Shown: piece by piece, positions 21,805 through 27,364 of the stretch
How the letters are laid out: each line of letters begins with the position of its first letter
Numbering within the stretch: the first letter of the stretch is position 1
Assembly: GCA_963813075.1 (NCBI GenBank)
Contig: CAWEXU010000030.1
Coordinates: forward strand, 64,001-128,000
From: Methanotrichaceae archaeon
GTDB taxonomy: Archaea; Halobacteriota; Methanosarcinia; Methanotrichales; Methanotrichaceae
Length of the DNA: 64,000 bases
Reading direction: 5' to 3'
Notes under the pieces: generated by a model
The model's database searches: none
What the model was told of the DNA's origin: nothing
Seen by the model: only the letters and a program-made list of their open reading frames with translations
Made by a program: the position numbers and the translations under genes

Positions 21805-23349
21805 CTACTGGGAGAAGATAAAACTTTCCCCGCCATAGGCCTTCTCCGAGACCTCCACCACCAGGGATATGAGATCCTCGGGCCGGCTTATGTAGTAGAC
21901 CTGGCCGAGTCCGGAAAGGGACTCCTCCACATGCCGATCTTTATAGGCCGGATCGATGGAGAAGAGGACGAACCGGCTCACCTCCGAGGCCCTTTTGATA
22001 TCCTCCCATTCCTGGTAGAGATTTTGAATATGGGTGTCTGTGATGCAGAGGATCAGGCAGCCCGGACGGCCTTGAGCCAGCTCCAGTATCCTTTTTCCCG
22101 GTATATGGGTGCGGGTGCAAAAGAACTCCACCAGCACATCCTCCACGGCATTCAGGTCCCGCGTCCAGCTGGCCAGCCGGTACTTCTCGCTGAAGTTTAT
22201 CGCCGCCAACTCCGCCCCCATGGAATGGGCGAACTGGCAGGCCTTGAAGGCGGCCAGGGTCGCCTTATGGCTCTTGGTGCCCTTCTTATGCCCCTCCATG
22301 GAGCGGCTGCTGTCCAGGACGATGAGAAGGTCGGGCACTCCCGCCCTTCCCGGCATCAGGGGGCTGGTCTCATAGTCCCTTTTGTAGGTCGAGACTCCGG
22401 GAATTAGATAGGGGCTCATGCTTTGAGAGTAGGAGACATCCAGATCAGAGCAGGGGTCGGTCAGCCTCCACTTGGTGTAGCCGGATGGGTTTTCCTCCGA
22501 GCGGGCCCTGGGGACCTCTCTGATCTCTATGGAGTAGCTCTGGTCGCGATACCAGCGCTTCAGGTCTCCCCTCTGCCCAAGGACCGCCAGGGCCTCCTCA
22601 TACTCGCCGGCATCAAGGTCCGCAGCACAGAGCAGGGGCACGGCATCTGCGCAGCCCTTCAGGATCTCCTGCGCCCTGACCGGTCCCTGCCCCAGGACCC
22701 CTGGTTCAAAGGCACTCAGGATGCGGGCCATCTCCTGGCACTGCCTGGGCCAGAGGCTCTTGTCCCTGATGCCGGGAGAGAAGATCCGCAGGAGTTGCCC
22801 CTTCTCCGGAAGGGAGCATGGGGGGAGGGGTGCCTCCCAAAACTCCCTTAGAAAGCCCAGTACCACCCGATCTATGGGCATGAGGGCCCGCCCCGCCCGG
22901 CCATCCAGCTCCGCCAGTCTCTTGTAGCCCATCAGCACCAGCTTTTCGTCCCGCGCGCTCCGCTCCAGCCGGAAGGAGTCCGTTACAATATCGGAGAAGA
23001 TGTTCACCATCCTGCGGGCAGATTCTATATCGCCAGGGGAGCCTGGCAAAAGGTCCGATGTAAAATCCGGATGCTCCAGGCCCTTGAGCGCGGCCAGAGC
23101 CAGGAGGGAAGCATTTTCCAGCGATCGAGGGCAGAAGATGTATTGAACTATAAGATGCTCGAAGAGGTTTTCCAGATACCGGGGTCCGAGCTGGATCGCT
23201 TCCCGGTCTAAGGTGATCTGATAGTTCTGGAAGGGAAAGCTGCCCTGGGCTGTGCCATCCGCCCGGCCCAGAACGGGCATAGGGAGGAGCGGCCAGTGCC
23301 AGTTCTCCCGAGAGCTCTGCCAGATCTCAATCCAGCCCCAGGACTCCAT
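21805..23349 (-). CDS. von Willebrand factor A (vWA) domain protein
   Basis: C-terminal MIDAS LLIVLDSSRSM ... INFS ... T ... LCITDT. Confidence 0.85.
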   Translation of the reverse strand: MESWGWIEIWQSSRENWHWPLLPMPVLGRADGTAQGSFPFQNYQITLDREAIQLGPRYLENLFEHLIVQYIFCPRSLENASLLALAALKGLEHPDFTSDLLPGSPGDIESARRMVNIFSDIVTDSFRLERSARDEKLVLMGYKRLAELDGRAGRALMPIDRVVLGFLREFWEAPLPPCSLPEKGQLLRIFSPGIRDKSLWPRQCQEMARILSAFEPGVLGQGPVRAQEILKGCADAVPLLCAADLDAGEYEEALAVLGQRGDLKRWYRDQSYSIEIREVPRARSEENPSGYTKWRLTDPCSDLDVSYSQSMSPYLIPGVSTYKRDYETSPLMPGRAGVPDLLIVLDSSRSMEGHKKGTKSHKATLAAFKACQFAHSMGAELAAINFSEKYRLASWTRDLNAVEDVLVEFFCTRTHIPGKRILELAQGRPGCLILCITDTHIQNLYQEWEDIKRASEVSRFVLFSIDPAYKDRHVEESLSGLGQVYYISRPEDLISLVVEVSEKAYGGESFIFSQ

Positions 23350-24091
23350 CCGCCGCCTCGGGTCCGAATTCCTTCGCCCTTATCTGCCCGTTCTTCATCC
23401 GCCATCCCGCCCTCCTTCCCGCCCGGCCAAAAACGGTGATCCTGCCCCCTTTCATCAGCAATCCCAAATAGTCCCCCGCATCGCCGTGAATGCGCAGGCT
23501 CCCCGCGCTCATCAGCCAGCCCGCTCTCTCCCCGCAGCTGCCCTGGCAGACCACCCTCCCGCCACAGCAGCCCAGGGCCAGGAAGTTGCCGCAGTCTCCT
23601 TTGATCACACCCAGACCCCCGCCCATCCGGCGAAAGGCGTAGTGGCCCGCGCCGGGGGCAACTATCCCCCCGCCGGTCATCTCCTGGCCCAGATAGTCGC
23701 CTGCCGCCTGGCGGAGATAGATCCTGCCCCCTGTCATCCTCTCCCCCACATGCTCTCTGCCCTCATCCAGGATGATGGTGCCCCGGGATAGCTCCAGGCC
23801 GGCATAATCTCTGGCCGGAAGGTGCAGGGGCTCTGGATTCCTCTCAGCGGCAATGCTGGAGATATATCCCCAGATTAGCTGATACTTCTTCCCCGGATCG
23901 GATGCGAGCAGCATCTCAAGGGTGCTGGCATCCAGAGGGAGTAGCTCTTCGATCTCCGCCCGGCTGGGCCTGGTTCCCACCCTATCTGCCAGGTCCTCCA
24001 GGCTGAAGATGGGATCTCCCTCCTGGCTTTTCAGCCTGCGGCCCCTGTTCAGGCCGCGATAAGCGTTGTCCATGAAGCGCGTGAGCTTCAT
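23327..24091 (-). CDS. GXGXG beta-helix protein (FwdC/GltB C-terminal-like)
   Basis: Repeated G.Y.G..M.GG.I.V.G units. Confidence 0.85.
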   Translation of the reverse strand: MKLTRFMDNAYRGLNRGRRLKSQEGDPIFSLEDLADRVGTRPSRAEIEELLPLDASTLEMLLASDPGKKYQLIWGYISSIAAERNPEPLHLPARDYAGLELSRGTIILDEGREHVGERMTGGRIYLRQAAGDYLGQEMTGGGIVAPGAGHYAFRRMGGGLGVIKGDCGNFLALGCCGGRVVCQGSCGERAGWLMSAGSLRIHGDAGDYLGLLMKGGRITVFGRAGRRAGWRMKNGQIRAKEFGPEAADGVLGLD

Positions 24092-24092
24092 C

Positions 24093-25358
24093 TCATCCTC
24101 TCCTCATCAACTGCTGGAGAGCGGGTATGAAGTCCAGCCGGGCGATGGGATCGTCATAGATCGATAGCTCCTCTATCGCCCTCGATACTGATATCTCCCC
24201 ATCCACTGCCCGGGAGAAGATCAGGTTCATGTCTGCCCGCTCGTTCATAGTGCGATTGATGCTCTTTTCCACCAGTTCTGCCACCAGGGCCAGCTTTCTT
24301 GCCCCATAGTAAGGAGGCCGCTCGATGACGGATCTTACCGGGTTTATGCGGTGCCAGATCACATAGGGAGCCACCGCTTTTAAGACCTCCAGGTCGGCCT
24401 CTCTATCCAGGAGATAGGCAAAAGCGCGGGAAAAGGATCTCAGGTCCTGGCGCACCCGATCTGACAGACCCTCGTCTGCCTGCCAGCAGATGGCCTCCGG
24501 ATTGCCGCTGTAGTGGCAGCCCGGGCACAGACCTCGCGAGGGGCGGGCAGCGGATAGCTGGGTCTTGTCATACGACGGCGCTCTCTCGCAGAGGGTGAAA
24601 TCCCTCACTAAAGAGAGCACTGCCAGCTCCGCCTGCGGGTCCAGCCTCTTTTGGGCCACCTGTCCGGGCAGGGAGTCGAACTCCTGGGAGGTGAAGCGGG
24701 GCAGTTCCTCTGCCAGTTCCCGGACCTCCTTCTCCCTCTCGGAGAGGGCTAGCCCGGCCAGGAAATCGGGCTGATAGGCGGGAACGCAGACAGAGATGCG
24801 GTCCAGCAGGGCCTCGTCCAGGGGATAGGTGGCGGAGAACTCCGGGTTCATGGTCAGATAAAAGCAGGTATCTCCGGGCTCGTACACCTGGCCGGCATAG
24901 CTGATCTTTCTCTTCTTGATTATCTCCAAAAACAGGTTCTGCTTGCCCCCAGGAAAGCGGTTGATCTCATTGATCAGCTTCCAGCGGGATCGGGACCAGG
25001 GAGTCCAGAGAACCGTGCAGGGCCCTTCCTCCTCTCGTGTCCACTGTCTGGGATCAAGAAAGCCCACCATCTTCTCCTCCGTCTGCTCCGGATGGCCGGT
25101 CACCATCCGGTCCTCTACCTGGTCAAAGGATAAAGAGAGGAATGAGGAACCCAGCAGATTGACCAGAGTGGTCTTGTTCGCCCCCATTCCGCCGTAGAGG
25201 AGAAGAGCACGGTTTCGCAGGCAGGCGTTGGCAATAGAGAAGTAGAGCTGAGAGTTGACCCGTTGATCGCCGATGGCAAGATCCTTCCTGGCCACATGCA
25301 GCCTCAGCTCCTCTAAGGCGGAGATCAGGGCTTTTATCTTCTCCAGAGGGTCCGGCAT
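24093..25358 (-). CDS. MoxR-like AAA+ ATPase
   Basis: Variant Walker A LLYGGMGANKTT, variant Walker B LINEINR, and TMNP / TYPLDEALLDR motifs. Confidence 0.85.
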   Translation of the reverse strand: MPDPLEKIKALISALEELRLHVARKDLAIGDQRVNSQLYFSIANACLRNRALLLYGGMGANKTTLVNLLGSSFLSLSFDQVEDRMVTGHPEQTEEKMVGFLDPRQWTREEEGPCTVLWTPWSRSRWKLINEINRFPGGKQNLFLEIIKKRKISYAGQVYEPGDTCFYLTMNPEFSATYPLDEALLDRISVCVPAYQPDFLAGLALSEREKEVRELAEELPRFTSQEFDSLPGQVAQKRLDPQAELAVLSLVRDFTLCERAPSYDKTQLSAARPSRGLCPGCHYSGNPEAICWQADEGLSDRVRQDLRSFSRAFAYLLDREADLEVLKAVAPYVIWHRINPVRSVIERPPYYGARKLALVAELVEKSINRTMNERADMNLIFSRAVDGEISVSRAIEELSIYDDPIARLDFIPALQQLMRRG

Positions 25359-25447
25359 AAAAAGATATCTCTAATGCATGCGATATTTAAATCAGGCGAG
25401 AGGAGCGGCGGATTTGTGGATGAAGAAGGGATAGCGACTTTTGGCTT

Positions 25448-25507
25448 GAGAGAAGATAGGAACAGCAAAAGTCAGTGTAGGAGGGATTGAAGATTGACTT
25501 TTGCCAG
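25448..25507 (-). ncRNA. Candidate sRNA, copy 1 of 135-bp-period array
   Basis: UGGCAAAAGUCA-AUCUUCAAUCCCUCCUACAC-UGACUUUUGCUG followed by a pyrimidine tail. BRE/TATA CCGAAAGAGTTATATT at 25529-25544. Confidence 0.65.
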
Positions 25508-25584
25508 GAATCCATACGACATAAGACGAATATAACTCTTTCGGGCGATAACGATCGACGTGATTTCTATTGGAAGGACTTTCC

Positions 25585-25648
25585 GAAAAGGAGGGAGGGG
25601 CAAAAGTCACCATACGGGAGGGATTGATGGCCGTCGACTTTTGCCTGC
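25585..25648 (-). ncRNA. Candidate sRNA, copy 2 of array
   Basis: GGCAAAAGUC-GACGGCCAUCAAUCCCUCCCGUAUGGU-GACUUUUGCC-CCUCCCUCCUUUU. BRE/TATA CCAAAAGGTTTAAAT at 25669-25683. Confidence 0.7.
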
Positions 25649-25719
25649 GTTTATTACGGCATTTGACGATTTAAACCTTTTGGCCGCATGCCTGCATCGG
25701 TTTATTAGCTTAATTTAAT

Positions 25720-25780
25720 GTAAATAGGAGGGGGGCAAAAGTCATTTTATAGGAGGGATGTGGGTATTGACCTTTGCACA
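25720..25780 (-). ncRNA. Candidate sRNA, copy 3 of array
   Basis: GCAAAGGUCA-AUACCCACAUCCCUCCUAUAAAA-UGACUUUUGC-CCCCCUCCUAUUU, with one G-U pair. BRE/TATA GGAAACAAATATATA at 25802-25816. Confidence 0.7.
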
Positions 25781-25939
25781 ACTACTATACGATCATCAAC
25801 GTATATATTTGTTTCCGTCTGAAGCAATCGCCGATAGAATGCTTCTGCCAGGATGTCCTGCCAGGATGAAATGGGTGGACATGCCAGCATGAGTCATATT
25901 GGCACTCCACCTCAATACTGCCATCCGCATAATAGGATC

Positions 25940-27271
25940 CTAATCAGTCATTGTAGAGCCATCATAGATGCTGAATGTCGGATCGATCTCCCCCTTGAAT
26001 CTCTCCAGATAAAAGCCCATTATCTCCCTCATTCTCTCCACGGGATTCACCTCGAAGACATCCTTTTTATAAGCGCCGCCAAAAGAATCATTAAAATCGC
26101 CGAAATCGACATCCTCCCGGATCAGATGCTTTGTCATCTCATATATCTCGGTTCCAGGAATGGGAGTTAAAAGAAATACGTTTATCCATTTTGGCTTTGA
26201 TTCGGCAATCATCCTCTTGGTCAGATCTATATCCTCCTGAGTCTCACCGGGAATTCCCACTATCAAGAACATCCCGGTGACGATTCCGACCTCATTGGTC
26301 AGCTTAAAAGCCCTTATTATCTGCTCAACGGTAATTCCCTTGTTCAGGAGGTCCAGGATCGCCGGGCTCCCGCTCTCCACCCCAAAGCCAAGCTCGACGC
26401 AGCCCGCCTGTTTCATTCGAGACAATATCTCAAAATCAACCGTATCCACCCTGGCCATGGCCTCCCACTTCTTCCCAGGAAGCTCTTTTTCCATGGCATT
26501 ACAAAAATCAAGCAACCTCTTTCTGTTCTGGGTGAACAGATCGTCATCAAATGAGACGATTTCAACATCGTATTCATCATACAGCAGTCTCATCTCCTCG
26601 ATGATGTTATGGACGGATCGAAATCTGATCTGATTTCCGAAGACGGCTTTGCTGCAAAATCGGCAGGAGTACCGGCAGCCTCGAGCGGTGATTATCGGGG
26701 AAGTAGCACCCCCCAAATGCGTTTTCCATGGATCGGTATATTTATGCATATCCAGTAGATGCCTCGCGGGATAGGGGATCTCATCAAGATCTTTTATAAA
26801 TTCCCTGGGAGGCGTCCTTACCACATCCCCCTTCGAGACAAAGGAGATACCCTTAACATCATCCAGGGGTAGATCGTTCTCTATCGCCCTGACCAGCTCG
26901 ACTATGGTCCTTTCGCCCTCTCCATAGCATACTATTGAGTAGCCGCTCTCGTGCAGCCTGGAGCTGGGCAGACACATGACCCCCGGTCCGCCGATCATAA
27001 AGACAGCATTCTCTCTTCCCACAATGCCCGGAATTTTCATTGCCTCACCGAGCAATGGAATAGTTGAGGTCACCCCGACGATGTCCGCGTTCAATTCAGT
27101 GATTTTTTTAATGTAATCATCATAGTCGCAGATAAACCCGTCAATTATTTCTATTTCTAAATCATTATTATAAGCTAAGAGTGATGACGCCAAATACGCC
27201 AGCCCTAAAGGAGGCTCTGGACAAATGGAAAATGCCGTTCTGCCATTGGGCTGCACGAATGATATCTTCAT
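25940..27271 (-). CDS. B12-binding radical SAM protein
   Basis: PPLGLAYLAS, GEGE, ARGCRYSCRFC (CxxxCxxC), FDDDLF, GVESG, G.PGET and TPIPGT motifs. Confidence 0.92.
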   Translation of the reverse strand: MKISFVQPNGRTAFSICPEPPLGLAYLASSLLAYNNDLEIEIIDGFICDYDDYIKKITELNADIVGVTSTIPLLGEAMKIPGIVGRENAVFMIGGPGVMCLPSSRLHESGYSIVCYGEGERTIVELVRAIENDLPLDDVKGISFVSKGDVVRTPPREFIKDLDEIPYPARHLLDMHKYTDPWKTHLGGATSPIITARGCRYSCRFCSKAVFGNQIRFRSVHNIIEEMRLLYDEYDVEIVSFDDDLFTQNRKRLLDFCNAMEKELPGKKWEAMARVDTVDFEILSRMKQAGCVELGFGVESGSPAILDLLNKGITVEQIIRAFKLTNEVGIVTGMFLIVGIPGETQEDIDLTKRMIAESKPKWINVFLLTPIPGTEIYEMTKHLIREDVDFGDFNDSFGGAYKKDVFEVNPVERMREIMGFYLERFKGEIDPTFSIYDGSTMTD

Positions 27272-27364
27272 AATTAATTGGTCCTCCACAAAATATATTT
27301 ACATTTTCCTGAAGAAGGAAGTTCGGGCAAAAGAGTAATTAGATCTGCCGGAGAAAGGGAATTG

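Follow-up and report, generated by a model that had tools for sequence, protein, structure and literature searches.

Tandem hairpin RNA genes with individual promoters and a common operator in Methanothrix relatives: a candidate family of anti-ribosome-binding-site small RNAs

The array discussed here lies on the minus strand at positions 25448 to 25816 of the window, i.e., of the whole 64,000-nt stretch of the Methanotrichaceae contig that was analysed. An earlier note on this DNA had placed three units by the sequence GCAAAAGTC starting at 25465, 25600, and 25735, and all three units were found at these positions. Read on the minus strand, each unit begins with BRE-like purines, followed by a TATA box, a 16-bp palindrome, about 10 free bases, a stem, a loop, and a C/U tail; the stem arms are GGCAAAAGUC/GACUUUUGC (10-11 bp), and the loop holds UCCCUCC. 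Copy 1 has its promoter at 25515..25543 (BRE CGAAA 25543-25539, TATA 25535-25529, operator palindrome 25530-25515) and its predicted small RNA (sRNA) at 25448..25505 (E 2e-8), which comprises a 5' arm (25505-25495), the loop core UCCCUCC (25486-25480), a 3' arm (25474-25464), and a pyrimidine tail. For copy 2, the promoter lies at 25655..25683 (a purine-rich BRE-like run, TATA 25675-25669, operator palindrome 25670-25655) and the sRNA at 25577..25645 (E 3e-9), with the 5' arm at 25645-25636, the loop core UCCCUCC at 25623-25617, and the 3' arm at 25608-25599. The promoter of copy 3 (25788..25816) consists of the BRE GGAAA (25816-25812), TATA (25808-25802), and operator palindrome (25803-25788), and precedes an sRNA of about 60-65 nt with putative ends at 25712..25778 (E 1e-8; 5' arm 25777-25768, loop core UCCCUCC 25758-25752, 3' arm 25744-25735). 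A search for the stem-loop pattern gave 3 occurrences in the window and none in 300 order-2 Markov copies of the window.

The spacing of the units had been described as an exact 135-bp period. This holds for the 3' arm, but the 5' ends are spaced 140 and about 133 bp apart, and since none of the 35 spacings in related arrays (range 103-296) is 135 bp, we rejected the exact period as a meaningful feature and regard it as incidental. Next to copy 1 lies a degenerate fourth half copy (25405..25445, minus strand), made up of a 5' arm plus AUCCCUUC (25443-25427), with neither 3' arm nor promoter and no fold; this decayed copy with its changed core is a trace of array turnover. The downstream neighbour is an AAA-type ATPase gene (24093..25391, minus strand; gene 24093-25358) with its own TATA at 25391-25385. 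It is the ancestral neighbour of the array, being kept in 20 of 80 pattern loci beside arrays of 1-5 units. The gene appears leaderless and belongs to an operon (21805-25358, minus strand) whose other products are a GXGXG (FwdC-like) protein and one of 514 aa that matches no family. Upstream, a B12-binding radical SAM gene (25940..27289, minus strand) is not a conserved neighbour; among the arrays examined, just the 2 closest have it alongside.

The earlier note had proposed independently promoted minus-strand RNAs belonging to a multicopy family, and the comparative data support each part of this proposal. Folding energy alone, which gives minus-strand z-scores of -3.4, -1.8, and -2.7 for the three copies, fails to settle the strand. 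Because the plus strand folds better than the minus strand for copies 1 and 2, the strand was read instead from promoter orientation and from the ratio of G-U to A-C among non-Watson-Crick stem variants, which is 55:2 and 41:6 in two alignments; both uphold the minus strand. In an alignment of 112 sequences, pairing is kept in 96% of stem cells and double changes number 18, against 6.3 in shuffles, although this alignment was seeded by a pattern fixing most of the stem and core letters, so that their conservation is inflated. For that reason, we give more weight to a more diverse set of 60 sequences, in which 95% of stem cells pair and 10 double changes are seen versus 4.7 in shuffles. All alignments contain a single hairpin per unit, with a near-invariant stem and the loop consensus UCCCUCCUAC. 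The loop and tail are unpaired in copies 1 and 3, and the loop is partly paired in copy 2.

Transcription start sites had been suggested 2 nt upstream of the stem, and we correct these predictions to the first stem G, i.e., 25505, 25645, and about 25777. In all 34 distant orthologues, the distance from the start of the TATA box to the first stem G is 30-33 nt, and in 29 of them the box is at exactly -30, which matches the TATA position at -23 to -30 of mapped starts in Methanolobus, as given in the available part of the supplement of PMC5378194. Public RNA data contain small shares of the stretch in 14 runs; the 4 examined consist of contigs assembled from mixed communities, without strand or ends. 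Run X5 has contigs over 25408-25558 and 25585-25744, both of which cross promoter DNA, run X9 has a relative's contig over copies 2 and 3, run X1 has one short contig over copy 2, and run X2 has no contig over the array.

A conserved motif noted previously as 'TACG...ACG' proved to be a real conserved element, but it is actually a 16-bp palindrome with the consensus TTCGTCAATTGACGAA, which overlaps the end of the TATA box in each unit of the window. The operator score is at least 9.5 in 95% of training units, while all 36 tRNA promoters score -4.9 or lower; this scoring is circular for the sRNA units, which formed the training set, but not for the tRNA promoters. The palindrome is not a general promoter element. 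Its placement on the TATA box suggests that the regulator is a repressor. In family f3 of the same class, only the right half-site of the operator is retained. The operator resembles the box of MsvR, given as TTCGN7-9CGAA in the portion of PMC3729527 that was available, and the outer letters are alike. MsvR was nevertheless rejected as the regulator, since its V4R domain (PF02830) was detected in 0 of 41 genomes of the family but did appear in the M. acetivorans control.

Outside the sRNAs, 14 other intergenic sites in the array's own genome score 15 or higher, and 10-11 of these are, by inspection, upstream of genes for apparently secreted proteins. The link to secreted genes is modest (5/12 genes, p=0.03); for the top 20 operator sites, the count is 7 versus 0-5 for 12 permuted matrices, and the number of operator sites outside the sRNAs is not above that of the permuted-matrix controls. 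One gene of the secreted target family described below carries the operator in this genome, and HTH genes were seen close to operator sites. Of 30 operator loci read across genomes, 18 belong to one element found upstream of an aroA-like gene, 9 precede TPR genes of secreted type, spread over three genera, and the remaining 3 are of other kinds. An operator-preceded TPR gene at G000:C18:28986-30610 (G000 being the array's own genome) is split into two frames here and whole in G049 and G001. At the aroA-like loci (L571, L573, L576, L577, L579-L581, L585, L588), a conserved TATA box and two tandem operators are followed by a conserved G-rich hairpin, about 110-190 nt upstream of the gene. This element may be a second regulated ncRNA or a leader, and the G-rich arm of its hairpin could pair with the C-rich sRNAs. 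It was not found in the own assembly, which is 83% complete.

To judge from sequence comparison, the hairpin units are genes of a real sRNA family, one that is undescribed in the openly accessible literature searched. Rfam 15 gave no match overlapping the hairpins in window positions 24500-27000 (E up to 10) or at 12 loci from distant relatives (E up to 5). An exact-pattern scan of GTDB genomes retrieved at least 119 loci, 112 of them archaeal and 7 bacterial. Among the archaeal loci listed, 109 are labelled Methanothrix, Methanosaeta, Methanotrichaceae, or Methanosarcinales, and the 7 bacterial loci, all of which lack the operator, are taken as chance matches. From the pattern loci, 152 units were taken, and 144 were kept after 8 bacterial rows were dropped. 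A matrix built from the promoters alone found further, diverged copies in the own genome, where covariance models put the number of copies at 13. The covariance model R1 has matches in 105/105 genomes of the order, with 1-19 each; these match counts only approximate the copy numbers. Elsewhere in the class, genomes mostly have a single copy of the RNA. Model R2, whose training set consisted in part of such single-copy members, matches 63/101 genomes of family f3 (by genus, g24 26/26, g23 11/12, g27 9/9, g20 6/7, g25 1/6, and g21 1/26, the last being weak); matches were also obtained in 3/4 genomes of family f4 and 2/2 of family f5. Outside the class, 2/127 genomes gave weak matches, which we treat as chance because the typical promoter is absent.

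In several genera of family f3, the single copy holds a syntenic place next to DUF2117, where a convergent gene often faces it; a search of the DUF2117 locus in g21 and g25 genomes found no copy. These f3 orthologues (loops L221-L249) have a second invariant loop segment, CGUCAUA, which is complementary to an AUG-ACG start. In family f4, the single copy (L191:1501-1578, L193:1501-1578) lies just downstream of feoB with a near-perfect operator (scores 20-22), and this adjacency hints at a possible iron link. Contigs in viral collections held 1 clear and 1 weak copy (L290:1497-1559 and L284:1486-1565) among 31 pattern loci, and these may be host DNA.

The 16S rRNA of the own genome ends in GGAUCACCUCCU, and GGAGG stands at the Shine-Dalgarno (SD) position in about 1 of 10 of its genes. 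The triplet CAU (anti-AUG) is found 1-7 nt 5' of the loop core in 37/112 sequences, compared with 16-20 in shuffles, an enrichment which indicates that many loops mirror SD-spacer-AUG. Complementarity was searched for in 2497 start regions, which derive from our own crude gene calls and include near-cognate starts. Perfect 16-nt matches were obtained for 2/26 loop/tail segments, versus 0.029 expected (P=0.0006). Counted by target, three start regions are complemented without mismatch over 16 nt by one or another of the 13 RNAs, and every one of them comes from a single secreted-protein family; because this family was defined after the first match, only the second match tests it independently. 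In the paralogue at G000:C4:70078-70143, a deviant loop, CCCACCU, matches from SD to AUG of two tandem genes of the family (16 nt, versus a null maximum of 15 in 1000 shuffles). In copy 2, the tail segment 25594-25579 complements the start region of the family's gene G000:C30:181639 perfectly over 16 nt (null maximum 14 in 1000), and this complement requires that the RNA extend beyond a U4 run at 25589-25586 inside the tail. Three relatives were checked for the copy 2 match, which is 10 nt long in G049 and absent from G045 and G036. The best target match does not exceed chance for 12/13 loops and 11/13 tails, among them the loop and the tail of copies 1 and 3.

The target 16-mer of the C4 paralogue is present in 44/58 other genomes of genus g1, and of 30 loci with this 16-mer that were read, 27 are the gene start and 3 are the sRNA. 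The main target reads GGGAAAGAAATG in g1, and sRNA seeds match it in 8 g1 genomes over 14-19 nt. In genera g4, g6, g13, g14, and g16, the start region is GGGAACGAAATG, with C where g1 has A, and seeds of the C version were found in G014 (14 nt, 2 copies), in g6 (13 nt, 7/7 genomes), and in G016 (10-11 nt, 6/13 copies), while one seed in G013 matches 14 nt with the upstream letters included. Summed over 9 genomes, matches within the own genome come to 119, compared with a mean of 98 over all permutations with foreign genomes (p=1e-4); the 9 genomes include kin and are not independent, so the covariation of seed and target may reflect no more than a few independent events. In G019 and G022, no seed specific to the secreted family is seen (8 and 9 nt), and the g1 genome G036 is an exception in having one target-family paralogue with the C version. 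In G098, a seed-bearing sRNA lies about 900 nt upstream of a target-family gene.

Other mRNAs are less clearly implicated. The start region of the S-layer gene, which the available part of PMC10470525 places among the most expressed surface genes of M. thermoacetophila, is matched by tails over 13 nt (C4 paralogue), 12 nt (copy 3), and 15 nt (G031). The C4 and G031 matches come from the same paralogue type (p=0.04 over 8 genomes, with 7-10 nt in the other six), and the 12-nt complement in the copy 3 tail (25731-25720) is not beyond chance (p=0.22). By this complementarity, the S-layer mRNA would be a weak candidate target. We rejected fpoH, fpoC, fpoK, kdpB, mcrB, and an acetate transporter as targets, since none of their 10-13 nt matches is beyond chance (p>=0.07); the fpo subunit letters and the labels kdpB, mcrB, and aroA are putative here. 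A seed common to many genera, the complement of AGGGTAAAGGAGG, has no gene-start target in 30 loci read. Energy-based ranking showed no enrichment of secreted proteins (4% of the top 50 vs 14% overall) and was dropped because it is dominated by G-rich regions. The idea that multicopy sRNAs occlude ribosome-binding sites, raised in the earlier note, thus gains support from complementarity and covariation for one paralogue type and from the copy 2 tail.

The target protein is 240 aa long, with a signal peptide and 8 cysteines, and its family has at least 9 paralogues in the own genome, four of them at G000:C30:176277-182349. Members end in a DWLPC-like motif; there are 2399 homologues, and among the 120 listed, all named ones are hypothetical or uncharacterised. 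Of the order's genomes, all 9 tested have the family; the single f3 genome tested yielded no member, though f3 genomes retain the RNA. The protein itself had no match in Pfam, NCBIfam, PDB, or the atlas. Its predicted structure (pLDDT 81) is nearly all beta strands, and fold searches with this model gave nothing by Foldseek at E 0.001 and a best Z of 5.9 with an rmsd of 6.4. We would guess from these features that the family is a component of the sheath or of the plugs; the MspA sheath protein has a mass of 60.9 kDa according to the part of PMC6242892 available. Separately, many secreted-protein genes have a strong GGAGG followed by a near-cognate codon (ACG, CTG, ATT, or ATA) that restores a full signal peptide, e.g., at G000:C30:178367, C30:188364, C5:95842, C4:5359, and C2:5782 and at loci L348, L352, L354, L358, L377, L378, L380, and L390. 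This pattern suggests regular non-AUG initiation in the lineage.

We consider it probable that these RNAs act in trans against ribosome-binding sites and that the secreted family is among their true targets. Each unit would be a stand-alone gene for a non-coding RNA of 60-70 nt, with TBP and TFB binding BRE/TATA and transcription starting at the first stem G, presumably about 30 nt downstream of where the TATA box begins. The 16-bp palindrome seen at the promoters would be the site of a regulator, probably a repressor that responds to some signal, and is common to nearly all copies in the order and to several secreted-protein genes. The one stem of 10-11 bp would hold the C/U loop open and leave the C/U tail, in which termination is expected, free. 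Loop and tail carry the anti-SD core UCCCUCCU with flanking letters specific to each paralogue; the core may nucleate pairing at GGAGG-type ribosome-binding sites and the flanks extend it toward the start codon, as complementarity and covariation suggest. Pairing at this position should block initiation and hence repress translation. Gene duplication would have produced the 1-19 matches per genome, with different seeds, and the best-supported target is the secreted, cysteine-containing, predicted all-beta family found across the order. The net effect would be a switch that lowers the synthesis of abundant exported proteins, probably with a broader, weak action on other GGAGG-led mRNAs.

The best reading of the comparative data is that the units are co-regulated sRNAs partly aimed at envelope mRNAs. 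A more far-reaching version, which we hold only tentatively and think rather doubtful, makes them the RNA arm of a cell-envelope regulon, in which an envelope or growth signal would release the repressor and so shut off the translation of the chief exported structural proteins, namely the S-layer and the all-beta family. In such a regulon, 5-20 sibling sRNAs would be switched on at the same time as secreted TPR proteins, proteases, and an alternative target-family paralogue, loop and tail would be two separate seeds, and the all-beta family might form the sheath of Methanothrix filaments or their spacer plugs.

Real RNAs of this kind might instead act chiefly as decoys that titrate an RNA-binding protein or the ribosome machinery, with additional copies adding dose, in the manner of CsrB/RsmZ-type RNAs, which are protein sponges. 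A decoy would explain why the stem sequence hardly varies over two orders (its exchanges are mostly G-U/A-U, and double changes are few), why most paralogues lack a specific target, and why the motif is repeated in loop and tail. It would not explain the CAU enrichment or seeds of 16-19 nt that extend as far as the start codon in one gene family and track its sequence between genera, and we judge protein titration less likely than occlusion of the ribosome-binding site, indeed unlikely overall, although the conservation of the stem in sequence as well as in structure leaves it some probability. That same conservation suggests a protein partner in any case, which is compatible with the anti-RBS model.

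We think it quite improbable that the hairpins are cis elements, i.e., 5' leaders, attenuators, or terminators of adjacent genes. Although a same-strand gene follows 90-230 nt downstream of many copies (8/13 in the own genome) and the array is kept upstream of the AAA gene as described above, every array unit has its own promoter, as does the AAA gene, and the downstream gene is on the opposite strand, i.e., convergent, for 5/13 own-genome copies and many single-copy orthologues, the neighbours being otherwise unrelated. A miniature mobile or repetitive DNA element, or a protein-binding site in DNA with inverted arms, would account for the arms, the dispersal of copies over varied loci, and the variable array size; the promoter on one side only at a fixed distance, a G-U bias that makes sense only in RNA, the single syntenic copy by DUF2117 across several f3 genera, and the diverged loops leave this explanation with very little probability. 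Equally slim is the chance that the RNAs are antitoxins or antisense partners of small opposite-strand ORFs, with their SD and AUG in the loop, in a type I toxin-antitoxin-like arrangement. GGAGGGA followed by ATG does occur on the opposite strand in 48/144 units, with a frame bias of 32/11/5, but this bias could come from a few large subfamilies, the ORFs traverse the operator and the TATA box, and no promoter was seen on that strand. Their lengths scatter from 1 to 88 codons, 96/144 units are without them, and we do not take these ORFs to be genes.

Methanothrix and its relatives are major converters of acetate to methane in digesters and wetlands, and to our knowledge, almost nothing is known of RNA-level regulation in these archaea. 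Together, the family, its operator, and a covarying target make anti-RBS control through paralogue-specific seeds testable in archaea. The operator points to an undescribed transcription-factor regulon that is open to direct test, and the role of an uncharacterised secreted all-beta family becomes testable as well. If the envelope reading is true, the family would be an archaeal counterpart of the bacterial envelope-homeostasis sRNAs; no such counterpart was described in the literature searched.

Several known systems invite comparison. Among the Staphylococcus sRNAs with a UCCC motif is RsaE. In others of that group, e.g., RNAIII, UCCC in an exposed loop nucleates pairing with the RBS, according to the available part of PMC4615179. 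Unlike the Methanothrix units, these sRNAs are bacterial and unrelated in sequence and structure, and they form no family of 10-20 paralogues as far as that account extends. The enterobacterial sRNAs MicA, RybB, and MicL, which are controlled by Sigma-E, lower abundant exported proteins by pairing at translation starts. Here the likeness would be one of functional analogy only, as there is no homology. Nine cold-induced sRNAs of a related methanogen, Methanolobus psychrophilus, are multicopy and self-promoted and have a common promoter motif, per the part of PMC5378194 available. In that account, the motif sits upstream of the promoter, whereas the Methanothrix operator overlaps the TATA box, and the six sRNA probes listed there contain, when compared by eye, no part of the Methanothrix stem.

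The earlier note had also invoked the alphaproteobacterial cuckoo RNAs. The cuckoo/CcsR/ar14 RNAs contain 2-4 hairpins side by side; every hairpin shows CCUCCUCCC and the stems vary, and the RSs0680a-d cluster of cuckoo RNAs is co-transcribed from one promoter (both from the available part of PMC4615179). The comparison stands as regards the C-rich anti-SD loop, the paralogues, and the tandem clusters; it does not extend to multiple hairpins or to CCUCCUCCC with variable stems, which are absent here. The Methanothrix units have one hairpin with an invariant stem, UCCCUCCU, and an archaeal promoter for each copy, and on these sequence features, the family is an analogy to the cuckoo RNAs and not a member. 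Closer by lineage are sRNA41 and loop 2 of sRNA154 of M. mazei, which repress translation through loops masking the RBS and are under nitrogen control, as reported in the available part of PMC5867862. The absence of a clear copy in g21 and g25, genera with genomes of 3-4.6 Mb that are probably Methanosarcina, argues, indirectly, against identity of the family with M. mazei sRNA41, sRNA154, or sRNA162. As far as the available text describes them, the M. mazei sRNAs are individual RNAs, unlike the multicopy Methanothrix family with its common operator; like sRNA41 and sRNA154, the Methanothrix RNAs belong to a related archaeal lineage, would act in trans, and would probably cover the RBS with their loop.
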